From NCBI RefSeq assembly GCF_003991155.1, contig NZ_CP031293.1: DNA of 64,000 bases. The stretch is one strand, 5' to 3'. The notes beneath the pieces are model-generated. The model did no database searches. It saw only the letters and a list, made by a program, of their open reading frames with translations, and had not been told where the DNA came from. The stretch is from Escherichia coli (GTDB lineage Bacteria; Pseudomonadota; Gammaproteobacteria; Enterobacterales; Enterobacteriaceae). The position numbers were made by a program, and so were the translations under genes. Of the stretch, positions 2,730 through 35,867 are shown piece after piece (the stretch's first letter is position 1; every line of letters starts with the position of its first letter).

Positions 2730-4045
2730 CAACCTAACTCCTTCGCCAGACGGGCAAACTCATTGCCTCGTTGTTCAAAGTTCTTGAACTGATCAAGGCT
2801 GGCACAGGCCGGGGAGAGCAGAACCATATCGCCCGGCTGAACACGCGGAGCCAGCAAGCGCATCGCCTGTTCCATGGTTTCGGTTTGTTCTGCCACTTCC
2901 GGGCGTAGCGCCGCCAGCTGCGCGCCGTCCCGACCGAAACAATACAGACGTACGTTATCGCCATTCAGGTAACGCGCCAGTGGGCTAAAATCTGCCGATT
3001 TACCATCGCCGCCCAGCAACAAATGCAGCGTGCCGTCTACGTGCAGGCCATTCAGTGCCGCTTCCGTACTGCCGACGTTGGTCGCTTTTGAATCGTTAAT
3101 CCAGCGCACACCGTTATGCTCCAGCACAACTTCAAAGCGATGCGGCAGACCAGTGAATGTGGTTAACGCTTTCAGGCTGCTGGCGCGCGGCAAACCAGCG
3201 GCATCTGCCAGTGCCAGAGCTGCCAGTGCATTGGTGTAGTTATGCTGCCCGGAAAGTTTCATTTCTTTCACGTTCAGCACTTTCTCGCCCTTCACCCGCA
3301 GCCAGGTTTCACCCTGCTGATGATTCAGGTGATAGTCACCCATGTTGACGCCAAAGCTGACGCAGCGTTCATCCGCACCGCGAATCGGCATTGTTAAGGC
3401 ATCATCAGCATTAACCACGCAAATTTTTGCGTTTTCGTAAATGCGCAGTTTTGCTGCACGATACTGTTGTAAACCAAACGGATAGCGATCCATATGATCT
3501 TCAGTTACGTTCAGAATGGTCGCTGCTACCGCCTGTAAACTGGAGGTGGTTTCAAGCTGGAAGCTCGACAGCTCCAGCACGTACAGTTCGCACTCATCAT
3601 CCAGCAGCATCAACGCAGGCAGGCCAATATTGCCACCCACACCAACGTTAACCCCCGCCGCTTTCGCCATTTCACCCACTAGCGTGGTGACCGTGCTTTT
3701 GCCGTTAGAACCGGTGATCGCCACAATCGGTGCTTGTGCTTCACGACAGAACAGCTCGATATCGCCAACGATTTCGATTCCGGCATCAGCGGCAGCGCTT
3801 AAGGATGGATGCGCCAGTGCAATACCGGGACTGGCGACAATCAGATCGGCCGCCATCAGCCATTCATCATTCAGACCGCCCGTGTGGCGTTCTACAGCTT
3901 CGGGTAATTTATCCAGGCCAGGCGGTGTCATACGCGTATCCATAACGCGCGGCGTCACACCGCGAGCGAGGAAAAAGTCCACGCAAGAAAGCCCGGTGAG
4001 GCCCAGGCCGATAATGACGACATTTTTACCCTGGTAATCAGCCAT
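2729..4045 (-). CDS. murD: MurD, UDP-N-acetylmuramoylalanine--D-glutamate ligase
   Basis: 438-aa [24 protein letters not shown]-terminus; Mur ligase motifs. Confidence 0.95.
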
Positions 4046-5130: not shown

Positions 5131-6482
5131 GTCCCATTCTCCTGTAAAGCGCGTACTACCTCTTCCATGGCAGCACTACGTGAACCCTTAACTAAAATCG
5201 TAATTACCTGTTGCTCAGCAATCAGTGATTTAAGACGCGCGATAAGCGCAGTTTTATCGGAAAAATGTTCGCCAACGCCGCTGGCGGTGCTGATAGCATG
5301 GCTTTGTTTGCCCACGCTTAACACGCGGTCAATACCAGCTGCTTTTGCCGCTTCGCCCACCTGTATATGGCAGGCTTCGCTTTCAGCGCCCAGTTCCGCC
5401 ATATCGCCCACCACCAGCACGCGGTAGCCCGGCATTTCAGCCAGTACCTGGACTGCTGCAGTCATTGAACCAACATTGGCGTTGTAGGAGTCGTCGAGCA
5501 GCAACTGGTTTTCTACCAGTTGAATGGGGAACAGACGGCCTGGAACAGCTTTCAGATTTGCCAGCCCCGCTTTGATAGCATCAAGCGTTGCGCCCACGGC
5601 CATGGAGAGCGCAGCGGCTGCCAGCGCATTCGCAATATTGTGACGCCCCGGCAACGGCAGCAGAACATCGACGCTACCTGTTGGGGTTTGCAGCGTAAAT
5701 TCCGTACCGTGCGAAGTCACATGGATATTGGTGGCGGTGAAATCGCTGTTGGCGGCATTGGGTGAGAAACGCCACACTTTGCGTGAGCCAATTACGCTCT
5801 GCCAGTTCAGCCAGTCGTTGTTGTCAGCGTTCATGATGGCGATACCGTTTTCCGGCAGGCCGCTAAATATTTCACCTTTCGCTTTCGCGACACCCGCAAG
5901 CGAGCCAAAACCTTCCAGATGTGCCGCTGCCAGGTTGTTGACCAGCGCCGCTTCCGGGCGAGTCAGACTCACAGTCCAGGCAATTTCACCCTGATGGTTC
6001 GCGCCAAGTTCAATAACTGCGTAATCGTATTCCGGCGTTAAGCGCAACAGCGTCATCGGTACACCGATGTCGTTATTGAGATTGCCTGCCGTATAAAGTG
6101 TGTTGCCGCACTGGTTTAAAATTGCCGCCGTCATCTCTTTAACGGATGTTTTGCCGGAGGAACCTGTCAGAGCAACCACGCGCGCCGGAACTTGCTGGCG
6201 AACCCATGCAGCCAGTTCACCAAACGCCAAACGCGTATCCTTGACGATTAACTGCGGCAGATCGATATCCAGCGGACGGCTAACCAGTAGTGCGCCTGCG
6301 CCGCCAGCTTTCGCCTGGTCGGCAAAATCATGAGCATCGAAACGTTCGCCTTTCAGGGCAACAAACAGGCAGCCCGGCGTCAGTTTTCGCGTGTCAGTGG
6401 TTACAGCATCAAGGGTAATATCTGCACCTTGCAGTTCACCGTTGAGAATATCGGTAAGTTGGCTAAGGGTTACGCTAATCAT
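5124..6482 (-). CDS. murF: MurF, UDP-MurNAc-tripeptide--D-Ala-D-Ala ligase
   Basis: 452-aa ORF; Mur ligase P-loop TGSSGKTS; dcw order. Confidence 0.95.
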
Positions 6483-7966
6483 GCAATCACCCCCAGCAGA
6501 CGCGCCACCGTGACGCGATCGGAGTAGTCCAGACGCTGATTGCCAACAATCTGGTAATCCTCATGACCTTTGCCCGCGACCAGTACCACATCATTCTCTT
6601 TAGCCTGCATAACAGCGCAAGTCACCGCTTCAGCACGGCCTTCCATCACTTTGGCATGTCCGGCATCTAACATTCCCGCCAGAATATCGTTGATGATGGC
6701 ACGCGGTTCTTCGGTACGCGGGTTATCGTCCGTTACCACCGCCACGTCAGCGAACTCTTCAGCAATTGCGCCCATCAGTGGACGTTTGCCTTTATCACGA
6801 TCGCCACCACAGCCAAAGACGCACCACAGCTTGCCCGCACAGTGCAGGCGCGCCGCCTGTAAGGCTTTTTCCAGTGCATCTGGCGTATGCGCGTAATCCA
6901 CCACCACCGTCGGTTTGCCTGGTGCAGTGAACACTTCCATACGTCCGCAAACCGGTTGCAGACGCGCGGCGGTTTTCAGCAGCTCAGCCAGTGGATAGCC
7001 GAGTGCCAGCAGTGTCGCCAGCGCCAGCAGCAGGTTGCTGACGTTAAAAGCGCCCATCAGATGGCTTTCAATTTCCCCATCGCCCCAGCTTGAGCTAAAG
7101 CGAATAGTCGCACCGCTGTCGTGATAGTTCACTTCAGTCGCTTTCAACCAGCGTCCGTGACAGTTCGGATTGATATGATCTTCCATTGACACCGCAACCG
7201 CGTCTGGCAGTTTTGCCAGCCAGCGGCGACCCACTTCATCGTCGGCGTTAACAATCGCCTGACCGCAATGATGTGCAGAATAAAGCAGCCATTTCGCCGC
7301 TTCGTAGTGTTCCATATCACCATGGTAATCAAGGTGATCGCGGCTTAAGTTGGTAAAGACCGATGCCGCAAATTTCAATGCCGCCACACGGTGCTGTACC
7401 AGCCCGTGGGAGGAAACTTCCATTGCGCAAAAAGTCGCGCCCTGATCCACCAGCCCCGCCAGCTCATGCTGAACATCGACTGCCGAACCGGTGGTATTTT
7501 CTGTCGGGATCACTTTCCCCAGCAGGCCGTTACCAACGGTGCCCATTACCGCGCTGGTTTCGCCAAGCAGTTGGCTCCACTGTGCCAGCAGCTGGGTCGT
7601 CGTGGTTTTGCCGTTGGTGCCCGTTACGCCTACAAGACGTAAATTGTCAGAGGGTTCATGGTAAAAGCGGCCCGCCAGTGCAGATAAACGCTCGTTGAGC
7701 TGGCTGAGATAGATGACCGGTACGCCGTGCATTTCACGGATTTCACCGTCGGTCGCCTCATCTTTCGCCTCTGCAATAATGGCAGCCACACCTTGCGCTA
7801 TCGCCTGCGGGATATATCGACGCCCGTCCGCCTGATGACCTACTACAGCTACAAAGAGATCGCCCGCCGCAGCCACACGGCTGTCGAGTGTCATCTCTCG
7901 CAGTGCTCGCGAAGGTGCGTCTGGCACCCACGGAGCAAGAAGGTCGCGCAAATTACGATCTGCCAC
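6479..7966 (-). CDS. murE: MurE, UDP-MurNAc-L-Ala-D-Glu--meso-DAP ligase
   Basis: 495-aa ORF; Mur ligase motif GTNGKTTT; dcw order. Confidence 0.95.
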
Positions 7967-30107: not shown

Positions 30108-30959
30108 TCACGACCTGTGCGGATAATGAGGGTTTAAGAAAAGAAAAAGCGGTCTTTCAAAGGGAGATTCTGAAAACTTTATAGCTCCCGAACTTGATAA
30201 TGAACTATACAACTCATGATTTATTCTGTTTTTATCTTTATAATAATTAGTAATAGGTCTATTATTATATTGATTATATAACAATGTTGAAAAAGACTCA
30301 TCTAATGGCTTTATATAATTTAACCATTCTGGAAGCTTCTTTTTTATTAGTTGATTTTTTTTAAAAGGAGGATGGGTTGTAAATAAGAATGGCGTAAACT
30401 CAGTATTTTTAAAATTCCCTGGCGCTCCATATGTATCCCATATTTGTAAGGCTTTTGTGTAAGATAAAGGTTTTGCCAATAAAAGTGGATCGGGGCCTGT
30501 TCCAAATACACGATAAAAACCAATCAAGTCTGAGACTAAATCTTCTGCACTAAATCCGCTATCAGTATACCAGTTAAAAATAAATGAGTTTTGCCATGCT
30601 TCAAACCTCTTCGCAGTTCCATACATTAACGTTAAGGCAACTCTTGCTTTAAGAGTGGGTGAAAGACATGAACGAACCATAACCTTCGTATAAACACCGG
30701 TATGAAATGTAAGATCTACTCCTAATATTTTTTCCCGAATTCCCATTTCCTGATGATAATCAACAGGAAAATACCAATCATGAAATTCATCGTAATATGT
30801 TGAAAAATGTTCTTGCTCCAATTTTCTTTTTAATATTCTGGCATCTTGTCCCTGAGCATGCCCCAAATCGATCCAACCTAACTCTTCGGTATAAACTAAT
30901 CCATACTTTTTCGTTGTTGCAAATATTCCATCAGTAATATCGTTACGTTTGCTCATCAC
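30108..30959 (-). CDS. Hypothetical protein, 283 aa; candidate effector/toxin of a two-gene cassette, function unknown
   Basis: ORF with GAGGGGAG RBS upstream of a GTG-ATG start; single Cys; AT-rich codon usage unlike the flanking genes; absent from the K-12 araC-yabI interval. Confidence 0.6.
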   Translation of the reverse strand: MMSKRNDITDGIFATTKKYGLVYTEELGWIDLGHAQGQDARILKRKLEQEHFSTYYDEFHDWYFPVDYHQEMGIREKILGVDLTFHTGVYTKVMVRSCLSPTLKARVALTLMYGTAKRFEAWQNSFIFNWYTDSGFSAEDLVSDLIGFYRVFGTGPDPLLLAKPLSYTKALQIWDTYGAPGNFKNTEFTPFLFTTHPPFKKNQLIKKKLPEWLNYIKPLDESFSTLLYNQYNNRPITNYYKDKNRINHELYSSLSSSGAIKFSESPFERPLFLFLNPHYPHRS

Positions 30960-31432
30960 AATCTCCCCTCAAAAAAAACGTATAGCAAATAATATCAATA
31001 AGGAAAAATATTATTTTTCAATGTTTTTTTGTATACAATTCATTTTATGAATGAATTTACAAAGATAGCTGCGCCTGATACCGCTACACTTTTGCCAGAC
31101 CATGTTCTCCTCTGAGGGAGTAACTGGCGCTTTTCATAGAATGCCGTACTTTTTTCAACAACTGCCACATCGAACGGCATTTATGGTGGCGTGAAGTGCC
31201 TGCCATAACCGCTCAATGTGGTGTTCCTACGATGAACAAACCGCTTGATATATTCTCCTGATACAACCGGACAATATGTTCATGATGGGTATCCCGATAC
31301 ATAAGCCTTCGTTTTATTTTTACAAAAAGAAATCGTTGTCGATATTTTATCAAGAAAAAAATAATTCAGGTAAAACGATTCAACTAAAAATAACTAAAAT
31401 TAATCCCCCGTGAAATATATAAATAACGTCAG

Positions 31433-31469
31433 ATGAAGAAAGCAAGGGGGGCCCCCCCTTGCTTTCTTA
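31433..31469. repeat. Long perfect inverted repeat with G6/C7 core at the island-araC junction (terminator-like or recombination site)
   Basis: aagaaagcaagggggg | cccccccttgctttctt, arms of ~16 bp, abutting the new araC stop codon. Confidence 0.7.
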
Positions 31470-32315
31470 TTATTCACATCCAGCCCTAAACTCGCTCGGG
31501 CTGGCCCCGGTGCATTTTTTAAATACTCGCGAGAAATAGAGTTGATCGTCAAAACCAACATTGCGACCGACGGTGGCGATAGGCATCCGGGTGGTGCTCA
31601 AAAGCAGCTTCGCCTGACTAATGCGTTGGTCCTCGCGCCAGCTTAAGACGCTAATCCCTAACTGCTGGCGGAAAAGATGTGACAGACGCGACGGCGACAA
31701 GCAAACATGCTGTGCGACGCTGGCGATATCAAAATTGCTGTCTGCGAGATGATCGCTAATGTACTGACAAGCCTCGCGTACCCGATTATCCATCGGTGGG
31801 TGGAGCGACTCGTTAATCGCTTCCATGCGCCGCAGTAACAATTGCTCAAGCAGATTTATCGCCAGCAATTCCGAATAGCGCCCTTCCCCTTGCCCGGCGT
31901 TAATGATTTGCCCAAACAGGTCGCTGAAATGCGGCTGGTGCGCTTCATCCGGGCGAAAGAAACCCGTATTGGCAAATATTGACGGCCAGTTAAGCCATTC
32001 ATGCCAGTAGGCGCGCGGACGAAAGTAAACCCACTGGTGATACCATTCGCGAGCCTCCGGATGACGACCGTAGTGATGAATCTCTCCTGGCGGGAACAGC
32101 AAAATATCACCCGGTCGGCAGACAAATTCTCGTCCCTGATTTTTCACCACCCCCTGGCCGCGTATGGTGAGATTGAGAATATAACCCTTCATTCCCAGTG
32201 GTCGGTCGATAAAAAAATCGAGATAACCGTTGGCCTCAATCGGCGTTAAACCCGCCACCAGATGGGCGTTAAACGAGTATCCCGGCAGCAGGGGATCATT
32301 TTGCGCTTCAGCCAT
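31470..32315 (-). CDS. araC: AraC, arabinose operon regulator; C-terminally shortened allele (281 aa, ends ..SEFRAGCE*)
   Basis: Start at [15 protein letters not shown]; the last 11 residues of K-12 AraC are replaced by a stop at the insertion junction. Confidence 0.9.
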
Positions 32316-34354
<2,039 letters not shown>

Positions 34355-34364
34355 GGACACGACA

Positions 34365-35867
34365 ATGACGATTTTTGATAATTATGAAGTGTGGTTTGTA
34401 ATTGGCAGCCAGCATCTGTATGGCCCGGAAACCCTGCGTCAGGTGACGCAACATGCGGAACACGTTGTTAATGCACTGAATACAGAAGCGAAGTTGCCCT
34501 GCAAACTGGTGCTGAAACCGCTGGGCACCACGCCGGATGAAATCACCGCTATTTGCCGCGACGCGAATTACGACGATCGTTGCGCTGGTCTGGTGGTGTG
34601 GCTGCACACCTTCTCCCCGGCCAAAATGTGGATCAACGGCCTGACCATGCTCAACAAACCGTTGCTGCAATTCCACACCCAGTTCAACGCGGCGCTGCCG
34701 TGGGACAGCATCGACATGGACTTTATGAACCTGAACCAGACCGCGCATGGCGGTCGCGAGTTCGGCTTCATCGGCGCGCGTATGCGTCAGCAACATGCCG
34801 TCGTTACCGGTCACTGGCAGGATAAACAAGCCCATGAGCGTATCGGCTCCTGGATGCGTCAGGCGGTCTCTAAACAGGATACCCGTCATCTGAAAGTCTG
34901 CCGTTTTGGCGATAACATGCGTGAAGTGGCGGTCACCGATGGCGATAAAGTTGCCGCACAGATCAAGTTCGGTTTCTCCGTCAATACCTGGGCGGTTGGC
35001 GATCTGGTGCAGGTAGTGAACTCCATCAGCGATGGCGATGTTAACGCGCTGGTCGATGAGTACGAAAGCTGCTACACCATGACGCCTGCGACACAAATCC
35101 ACGGCGAAAAACGACAGAACGTGCTGGAAGCGGCGCGTATTGAGCTGGGGATGAAGCGTTTCCTGGAACAAGGTGGCTTCCACGCGTTCACCACCACCTT
35201 TGAAGATTTGCACGGCCTGAAACAGCTTCCTGGTCTGGCCGTACAGCGTCTGATGCAGCAGGGTTACGGCTTTGCGGGCGAAGGCGACTGGAAAACTGCC
35301 GCCCTGCTTCGCATCATGAAGGTGATGTCAACCGGTCTGCAGGGCGGCACCTCCTTTATGGAGGACTACACCTATCACTTCGAGAAAGGCAATGACCTGG
35401 TGCTCGGCTCCCATATGCTGGAAGTCTGCCCGTCGATCGCCGCAGAAGAGAAACCGATCCTCGACGTTCAGCATCTCGGTATTGGCGGTAAAGACGATCC
35501 TGCCCGCCTGATCTTCAACACTCAAACCGGTCCAGCCATTGTCGCCAGCCTGATTGATCTCGGCGATCGTTACCGTCTGCTGGTTAACTGCATCGACACG
35601 GTGAAAACACCGCACTCCCTGCCGAAACTGCCGGTGGCGAATGCGCTGTGGAAAGCGCAACCGGATCTGCCAACTGCTTCCGAAGCGTGGATCCTCGCTG
35701 GTGGCGCGCACCATACCGTTTTCAGCCATGCGCTGAACCTCAACGATATGCGCCAGTTCGCCGAGATGCACGACATTGAAATCACGGTGATTGATAACGA
35801 CACCCGCCTGCCAGCGTTTAAAGACGCGCTGCGCTGGAACGAAGTGTATTACGGGTTTCGTCGCTAA
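34365..35867 (+). CDS. araA: AraA, L-arabinose isomerase
   Basis: 500-aa [23 protein letters not shown]. Confidence 0.95.

Follow-up and report, generated by a model that had tools for sequence, protein, structure and literature searches.

A 281-codon araC allele of Escherichia coli with a 3' end probably imported on island DNA

Here we report that araC in the window, the 64,000-nucleotide stretch of Escherichia coli DNA that was analyzed, is very probably an intact, working allele of 281 codons, the end of which was imported on island DNA. The initial annotation had described this gene as an araC allele without the last 11 codons of K-12 araC. We confirmed this difference: the encoded protein comprises 281 amino acids and ends in FRAGCE*, compared to 292 amino acids in K-12. 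As judged from comparisons across the enterobacteria, the length of the window allele is evidently the ancestral one, and the 11 "lost" codons are not ancestral.

The araC gene and its displaced end

The following features define the araC end of the locus:

31470..32315, minus strand: araC coding sequence, 281 codons plus TAA (ORF list; comparison with NCBIfam, Pfam and K-12)
31470..31487, minus strand: putatively imported araC 3' end, codons 277-281 (AGG GCT GGA TGT GAA) plus TAA, delimited by clustered differences
31470..31490, minus strand: proximal copy of an imperfect direct repeat, sense strand tttagggctggatgtgaataa, by direct reading
29610..29663, minus strand: displaced native araC end, consisting of the distal repeat copy (29643-29663), 11 codons and TAA, now non-coding
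28760..29524, minus strand: yabI (DedA family), the normal downstream neighbor of araC

From its annotated start at 32315, araC runs through 281 codons to a TAA at 31470-31472, and a second in-frame TAA follows directly. The region is 100% identical in E. coli 2016C-3878, for which RefSeq gives an araC CDS of 846 nt encoding 281 amino acids (WP_001361831.1); araC of K-12 (b0064) has 879 nt and encodes 292 amino acids. In a codon-by-codon comparison with MG1655, the window protein corresponded exactly to residues 1-281 of K-12 AraC, with 14 synonymous and 0 non-synonymous differences over codons 1-281. Three of these 14 differences are clustered (R277 CGT>AGG, A278 GCC>GCT and G279 GGT>GGA), and codon 282 is GAA in MG1655 and TAA in the window. 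Synonymous differences had initially been noted for four codons, F, R, A and G. This is correct for R277, A278 and G279, but not for F276, which is TTT in both sequences. About 100 nt ahead of codon 277 are identical to K-12. The gene is divergent from araB (32654-34354, plus strand) and araA (34365-35867, plus strand), both of which are intact, in the K-12 layout across the PC/PBAD control region. The window locus thus shares its regulatory region and its araBAD neighbors with E. coli K-12.

Residues 282-292 of K-12 AraC (EKVNDVAVKLS) are missing from the window protein, and their DNA is displaced to 29610-29642. On the minus strand, 29663..29610 reads ttt tgt gcc gat tgt gaa gaa aaa gtg aat gat gta gcc gtc aag ttg tca taa, which is K-12 araC codons 276-292 plus the stop codon with two substitutions. 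This displaced end adjoins yabI upstream, and the K-12-type araC-yabI spacer comes after it. Codon 276 is therefore separated from the former end of araC by an insert of about 1.82 kb (29664-31487), a fixed feature of the sequence that does not depend on statistics. The proposal that an insertion separates the gene from its K-12-type last 11 codons was borne out, and the tail persists 1.8 kb away.

The two copies of the flanking repeat in the window (31470-31490 versus 29643-29663) match at 15 of 21 positions by direct reading. Our repeat search missed this pair because it contains no 8-nt exact seed. The same search returned a flanking repeat of 25 nt with 80% identity, at a spacing of 1827 nt, for the variant of the insert present in Nissle-type strains, in which the distal stretch gccggttgtgaagaa is identical to K-12.

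Contents and source of the insert

Between the araC stop codon and the displaced end, the window contains the following features:

31436..31468, minus strand, readable also on the plus strand: predicted intrinsic terminator of araC, a 15-bp perfect-stem hairpin followed by a U-rich run
31264..31435, minus strand: remnant of a PfkB-kinase/DHDPS/TctCBA island, by alignment to the complete island in CCUG 73778 and K. spallanzanii
31084..31223, minus strand: IS630-family transposase fragment, a pseudogene, from the RefSeq annotation of 2016C-3878 (3185-3324 there)
30108..30959, minus strand: cassette gene 1, 283 amino acids, no family match (ORF list)
29679..30101, minus strand: cassette gene 2, 140 amino acids, hydrophobic N terminus (ORF list)

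The hairpin at 31436-31468 gave a terminator-like match on both strands, with a fold of -25.6 kcal/mol (z = -5.0; 0 of 200 shuffled sequences did as well), and it is homologous but degenerate in the type C locus. It is likely the intrinsic terminator of araC. An AT-rich spacer follows, ahead of the kinase start, and kinase homology extends to about 31264. The island remnant consists of the araC-pfkB intergenic region of the island plus the opening 13 kinase codons (ATG at 31302..31300, MYRDTHHEHIVRL).

In E. coli CCUG 73778 the intact island has a size of 5.4 kb, encodes a PfkB kinase, a DHDPS-family protein, TctC, TctB and TctA, and fills the araC-yabI gap. The araC gene of this strain is also 846 nt long. 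In Klebsiella spallanzanii, the same island is positioned right after the araC TAA, with a kinase that is 81% identical. An alignment of the window junction to araC of related strains, as suggested in the initial annotation, showed that GAGTTTAGGGCTGGATGTGAATAATAAGAAAG is identical in CCUG 73778, and that the sequence downstream is homologous to the island edge of K. spallanzanii. The combination of island-edge homology with an identical junction argues that the terminal araC codons of the window came with the island DNA. An earlier suggestion was that the junction is derived from an element and yet preserves the reading frame. Import together with island DNA and maintenance of the frame agree with our results, but a fortuitous element sequence does not: the araC end of the window is evidently a homologous araC terminus that has diverged and that the island carries at its proximal edge.

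The IS630 fragment comprises 140 bp and is annotated in RefSeq as "frameshifted; incomplete; missing N-terminus". We considered an IS630 insertion as the cause of the junction and rejected it. The fragment is internal to the insert, at about 250 bp from the araC stop codon, and the junction is composed of island DNA; the intact element with terminal inverted repeats and a TA target duplication that such an insertion calls for was not seen at the araC junction. Separately, we observed an 18-nt imperfect repeat, GATAGCTGCGCCTGATAC (31064-31081) and GATATATTCTCCTGATAC (31247-31264), the copies of which are 183 nt apart; it brackets the IS630 fragment and marks the position where PfkB kinase homology ends. 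This repeat may be the trace of an IS-mediated deletion. Neither of the cassette proteins (283 and 140 amino acids) had a match in Pfam or NCBIfam.

Distribution in E. coli

We surveyed 5426 complete E. coli genomes using island-specific queries and synthetic junction queries. The window-type insert was present in 486 genomes and the intact tct island directly after the araC stop codon in 575 genomes, so that the 281-amino acid allele with insert occurs in about 1061 of the 5426 genomes (approximately 20%). In all six annotated insert or island examples examined, araC was 846 nt long. Coverage and identity of an 80-nt junction query were dropped as a means of counting alleles; K-12-type ends align through at 88-92%, and Nissle-type ends fall into the same band.

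According to the initial annotation, identical nucleotides at these codons in related strains without the insert would point to ordinary allelic variation. A synthetic query in which AGG-GCT-GGA...TAA was joined directly to the old tail had no genuine insert-free match among the 5426 complete E. coli genomes, so that this refutation did not apply. Four insert-free genomes carry a plain GAA>TAA change at codon 282 in a K-12-like context (for example, NZ_CP080080.1 3799817-3799858) and encode the same protein, WP_001361831.1.

Two side observations concern records with unexpected araC loci. In a genome titled E. coli SCPM-O-B-8794, araC shows 86 nucleotide differences from the window over 846 nt, none of which alters an amino acid, and ends at codon 281; a chaperone-usher-like operon (201, 879, 250, 248 amino acids and more) comes next, in place of yabI. 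None of the 5426 complete E. coli genomes matched this configuration, and the record may thus represent a divergent Escherichia lineage. On short, free-standing contigs of Photorhabdus namnaonensis (6.6 kb) and Xenorhabdus szentirmaii (6.5 kb), araC is identical to the K-12 292-amino acid type, downstream bases included. This looks like contamination with a pBAD-type vector or E. coli DNA rather than a native gene.

The 281-amino acid terminus among enterobacteria

One genome per species was scanned; among the 80 araC loci obtained, about 60 encode a protein of 281 amino acids ending in FRAGCE and a stop codon. These include the C. freundii complex, S. enterica subsp. arizonae, Klebsiella, Kluyvera, Raoultella, Kosakonia, Enterobacter and Pseudocitrobacter. 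The 292-amino acid form was found in E. albertii, two other Escherichia species and the C. amalonaticus/sedlakii group, all of which have GAA at codon 282. That the AraC proteins of E. coli and S. typhimurium differ in length by 11 residues has been known since the sequencing of these genes in the early 1980s.

Following the TAA, the C. freundii complex and Salmonella read aaagtgaatgatgt...gtcataa (aaagtgaatgatgtgtcc...gttgtcataa), which is a homolog of K-12 codons 283-292. The presence of a tail homolog past the stop codon in species with a 281-amino acid AraC argues that the K-12 tail is a read-through product. With GAA in place of TAA as codon 282, translation in Escherichia and the Citrobacter amalonaticus group continues into intergenic sequence. 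By this comparison, the 11 extra codons of K-12 evidently result from a stop-loss (TAA to GAA) with read-through into intergenic sequence.

In Salmonella enterica, the C. freundii complex, Klebsiella and others, AraC shares with the window protein its length, its C terminus and the position of the gene between araBAD and yabI. Unlike these orthologs, to which it is 92-95% identical, the window protein has an E. coli-type body, and only the last five codons and the stop codon are of a foreign type. The termini nearest to AGG-GCT-GGA were AGA-GCT-GGA in Salmonella and AGG-GCT-GGC in Yokenella; among the loci compared, we found no donor with the exact AGG-GCT-GGA terminus.

The two-gene cassette in other genera

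Homologs of the 283-amino acid protein, with 68-70% identity to the E. coli protein, are encoded between a 281-amino acid araC and yabI in C. freundii, C. farmeri and S. enterica. The gene for the 140-amino acid partner accompanied the 283-amino acid gene at every locus examined. In Trabulsiella and Enterobacter sp. ENT03, the cassette is located between araD and polB, and no araD-terminus repeats were seen around it there.

In four species (E. coli, C. freundii, C. farmeri and S. enterica), the cassette is flanked on both sides by direct repeats of the araC terminus (the last 15-25 bp). They consist of a perfect 17-nt repeat, CGCTGGATGTGAATAAA, in C. freundii, and of gctggatgtgaataa and gctattgtgaataa in S. 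enterica. In C. farmeri, which belongs to the 292-type clade, the proximal cgcgccggttgtgaa is followed by TGA and the distal cgcgccggttgtgaa by GAA and the tail, with 15 nt perfectly repeated; C. farmeri thus shows the E. coli pattern independently. Locus coordinates of such araC-terminus repeats are 4818-4834/6307-6323 in L086 and around 3889-3906/5320-5340 in L092.

Between species, identity of the 283-amino acid protein is 68-79%, with E. coli the most distant, and the ordering is the same for AraC and YabI. The cassette diverges in parallel with AraC and YabI, only faster, which argues for long residence rather than recent transfer.

Distant relatives of the 283-amino acid protein carry DUF4056. 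In Rahnella, a 291-amino acid ORF directly follows an Hcp gene on the contig that also carries the homolog P0045. There was no T6SS gene beside the window cassette. The cassette may be an orphan type VI effector-immunity pair. Separately, the 283-amino acid gene is split in SYNB1934 (6706-7553) and in an O18:H1 strain (5648-6495), where the annotation gives two ORFs of 573 and 234 nt. In both strains the gene seems to be in decay, while it is intact in the window.

Origin of the arrangement

We infer import by homologous recombination and the following order of events. Codons 1-276 are ordinary E. coli araC, and codons 277-281, the double TAA, the strong terminator hairpin and the next approximately 200 bp correspond to the proximal edge of an island that was presumably imported. 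The imported DNA would have brought with it the araC 3' end of the donor, replacing the resident end by recombination within araC, with a crossover between codon 241 and codon 277. The island would subsequently have decayed, in association with IS630, to 13 kinase codons and the IS630 fragment, and would now stand next to a two-gene cassette that either pre-existed or was co-imported. The resident araC end would have been pushed 1.8 kb off and left as a non-coding remnant beside yabI. Because the gene is K-12-like ahead of codon 277, either the crossover would have occurred unusually near the end of the gene, or the upstream part was later homogenized by within-species recombination. A further point speaks against such an import: the start of the resident remnant coincides exactly with that of the imported end, giving an imperfect direct repeat of 21-25 bp. 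Such a repeat looks more like the signature of an attachment site or a target duplication than like a random recombination end-point.

It is possible, although we consider it unlikely, that the cassette-bearing, 281-amino acid state is old in Escherichia, Salmonella and Citrobacter, and that insert-free loci arose by deletion between the repeats, whereby a distal copy that had drifted to GAA gave rise to the 292-amino acid AraC. The occupation of the same slot between araC-terminus repeats in C. freundii, S. enterica, C. farmeri and E. coli is consistent with this, as are the divergence of the cassette in parallel with the flanking genes, which speaks against recent transfer between species, and the combination, in the 292-type lineages E. 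coli and C. farmeri, of a distal GAA with a proximal stop codon that is TAA in E. coli and TGA in C. farmeri. However, E. albertii and two other Escherichia species are insert-free and have a 292-amino acid AraC, cassette-free genera (Klebsiella, Kluyvera and others) already possess the tail directly after the TAA, and the same T>G change would have to be shared or to recur. Moreover, recombination with insert-free alleles would equally explain a K-12-like distal flank, and in the window it is tct-island DNA, not cassette DNA, that adjoins araC. A proposal that we regard as doubtful is that the last 15-25 bp or so of araC constitute a recurrent recombination site, and that loss of the cassette through recombination between the repeats, with retention of the GAA-containing distal copy, generated the 292-amino acid AraC. 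If this were true, the textbook K-12 AraC tail would be the scar of a cassette excision.

The import of a donor araC end has to be weighed also against integration of a site-specific element. The prophages e14 and phage 21 integrate in icd and supply an alternative 3' end of their target gene. In a comparable manner, an element could have targeted the last 15-21 bp or so of araC, with an attP mimic rebuilding the end of the gene and a recombinase that has since been lost. We consider this quite improbable. As at icd, a diverged and largely synonymous 3' end is supplied, the gene is intact, and a remnant of the original end is found on the far side; araC-terminus direct repeats flank the insert in four species, and the araC-proximal copy always ends in a stop codon. 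Different from icd, about 18 bp are replaced, and the proximal DNA is the edge of a metabolic island and not of a phage. When we looked for the marks of an att-type element, direct repeats were present at both ends of the insert, but an integrase was absent; as to mobility, none of the 5426 E. coli genomes joined the proximal repeat copy to the tail, and the divergence of the cassette followed that of the host genes. There is no integrase or other recombinase gene in the insert, the cassette ORFs match no Pfam or NCBIfam family, and the sole mobile trace is the 140-bp IS630 fragment. In Trabulsiella and Enterobacter sp. ENT03, the cassette occupies the araD-polB gap and is not flanked by such repeats, no element-type empty site was found in 5426 E. 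coli genomes, and the repeat sequences are species-specific rather than element-specific.

Finally, the 281 codons might be ordinary allelic variation, through a simple nonsense mutation at codon 282 unrelated to the insert, for which the four insert-free E. coli genomes with exactly GAA>TAA and the same protein provide a precedent. In the window, however, three synonymous changes cluster beside the stop codon, the tail lies at a distance of 1.8 kb, and the island DNA past the stop codon is common to the 575 genomes with the tct island. This anatomy refutes simple nonsense for the window, and we regard that explanation as highly improbable. All of the alternatives on the origin of the allele leave its present nature unchanged.

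Function of the 281-amino acid AraC

Whether the shortened AraC is functional was initially left open. This question is largely answered by identity to K-12 AraC over residues 1-281, by complete domains, by a solved structure and by the use of arabinose in Nissle 1917. The window protein scored 508.4 bits against the NCBIfam AraC equivalog NF007860 of the AraC/XylS family (cut-off 208), with residues 2-281 aligned to positions 7-286 of the 292-position profile. Pfam PF02311 (AraC_binding), the N-terminal domain for sugar binding and dimerization, covers residues 22-160, and PF12833 (HTH_18), the C-terminal double helix-turn-helix, covers residues 201-278 at profile positions 2-79 of 80. By these profile matches, the window AraC can be classified as an AraC equivalog with both domains complete. 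In PDB 2K9S, the solved DNA-binding domain of AraC, the construct comprises residues 175-281.

AraC of Nissle 1917 is identical to the window AraC at 280 of 281 positions. Nissle carries the same insert type (cassette, IS630 fragment and island remnant) and a 281-amino acid AraC. It differs from the window in its terminal codons (AGG GCA GGT versus AGG GCT GGA), in a distal repeat identical to K-12 and in a 283-amino acid cassette gene that is split into two ORFs, compared to an intact gene in the window. Wild-type Nissle 1917 grows on arabinose, which it uses naturally, and restoration of the "original araC locus" in Nissle led again to growth on arabinose as the sole carbon source (PMC8121789). 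In SYNB1934, which is derived from Nissle, LAAD is located directly beside the 281-amino acid araC. LAAD in this strain is L-arabinose-inducible through AraC-PBAD (PMC10620806). In the literature on the 281/292-amino acid difference, on truncations of the AraC tail or on an araC-yabI island, we found nothing usable.

The window AraC almost certainly works as a regulator, and we infer functional equivalence in the window strain. The imported end brings back the canonical enterobacterial protein, so that no effect on arabinose regulation is expected. A functional defect of the 281-amino acid AraC is very unlikely, and a subtle role for residues 282-292 in K-12 AraC is conceivable. That the truncation damages AraC, leaving a partial loss of function or a decaying gene, is scarcely credible: eleven K-12 residues are indeed absent, but 281 amino acids are the norm outside Escherichia, the differences from K-12 are 0 non-synonymous versus 14 synonymous, the Pfam and NCBIfam domains are complete and the 2K9S construct ends at residue 281, approximately 20% of the complete E. 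coli genomes retain the 281-amino acid form, AraC-PBAD operates in Nissle, which uses arabinose, and araB and araA are intact in the window.

Implications

The feature reported here is ordinary and of little consequence for biology at large; its one somewhat novel aspect is that a cassette bounded by repeats is found at the araC stop codon in several genera. The gap between araC and yabI is a hotspot occupied by islands that differ from strain to strain. The 11-residue tail of textbook K-12 AraC is evidently a lineage-specific read-through. The 281-amino acid AraC of E. coli, present in about one-fifth of complete genomes, is the canonical enterobacterial form and not a damaged regulator. It is also carried by Nissle 1917, a probiotic and chassis strain, and annotators and engineers need not call it a truncation.
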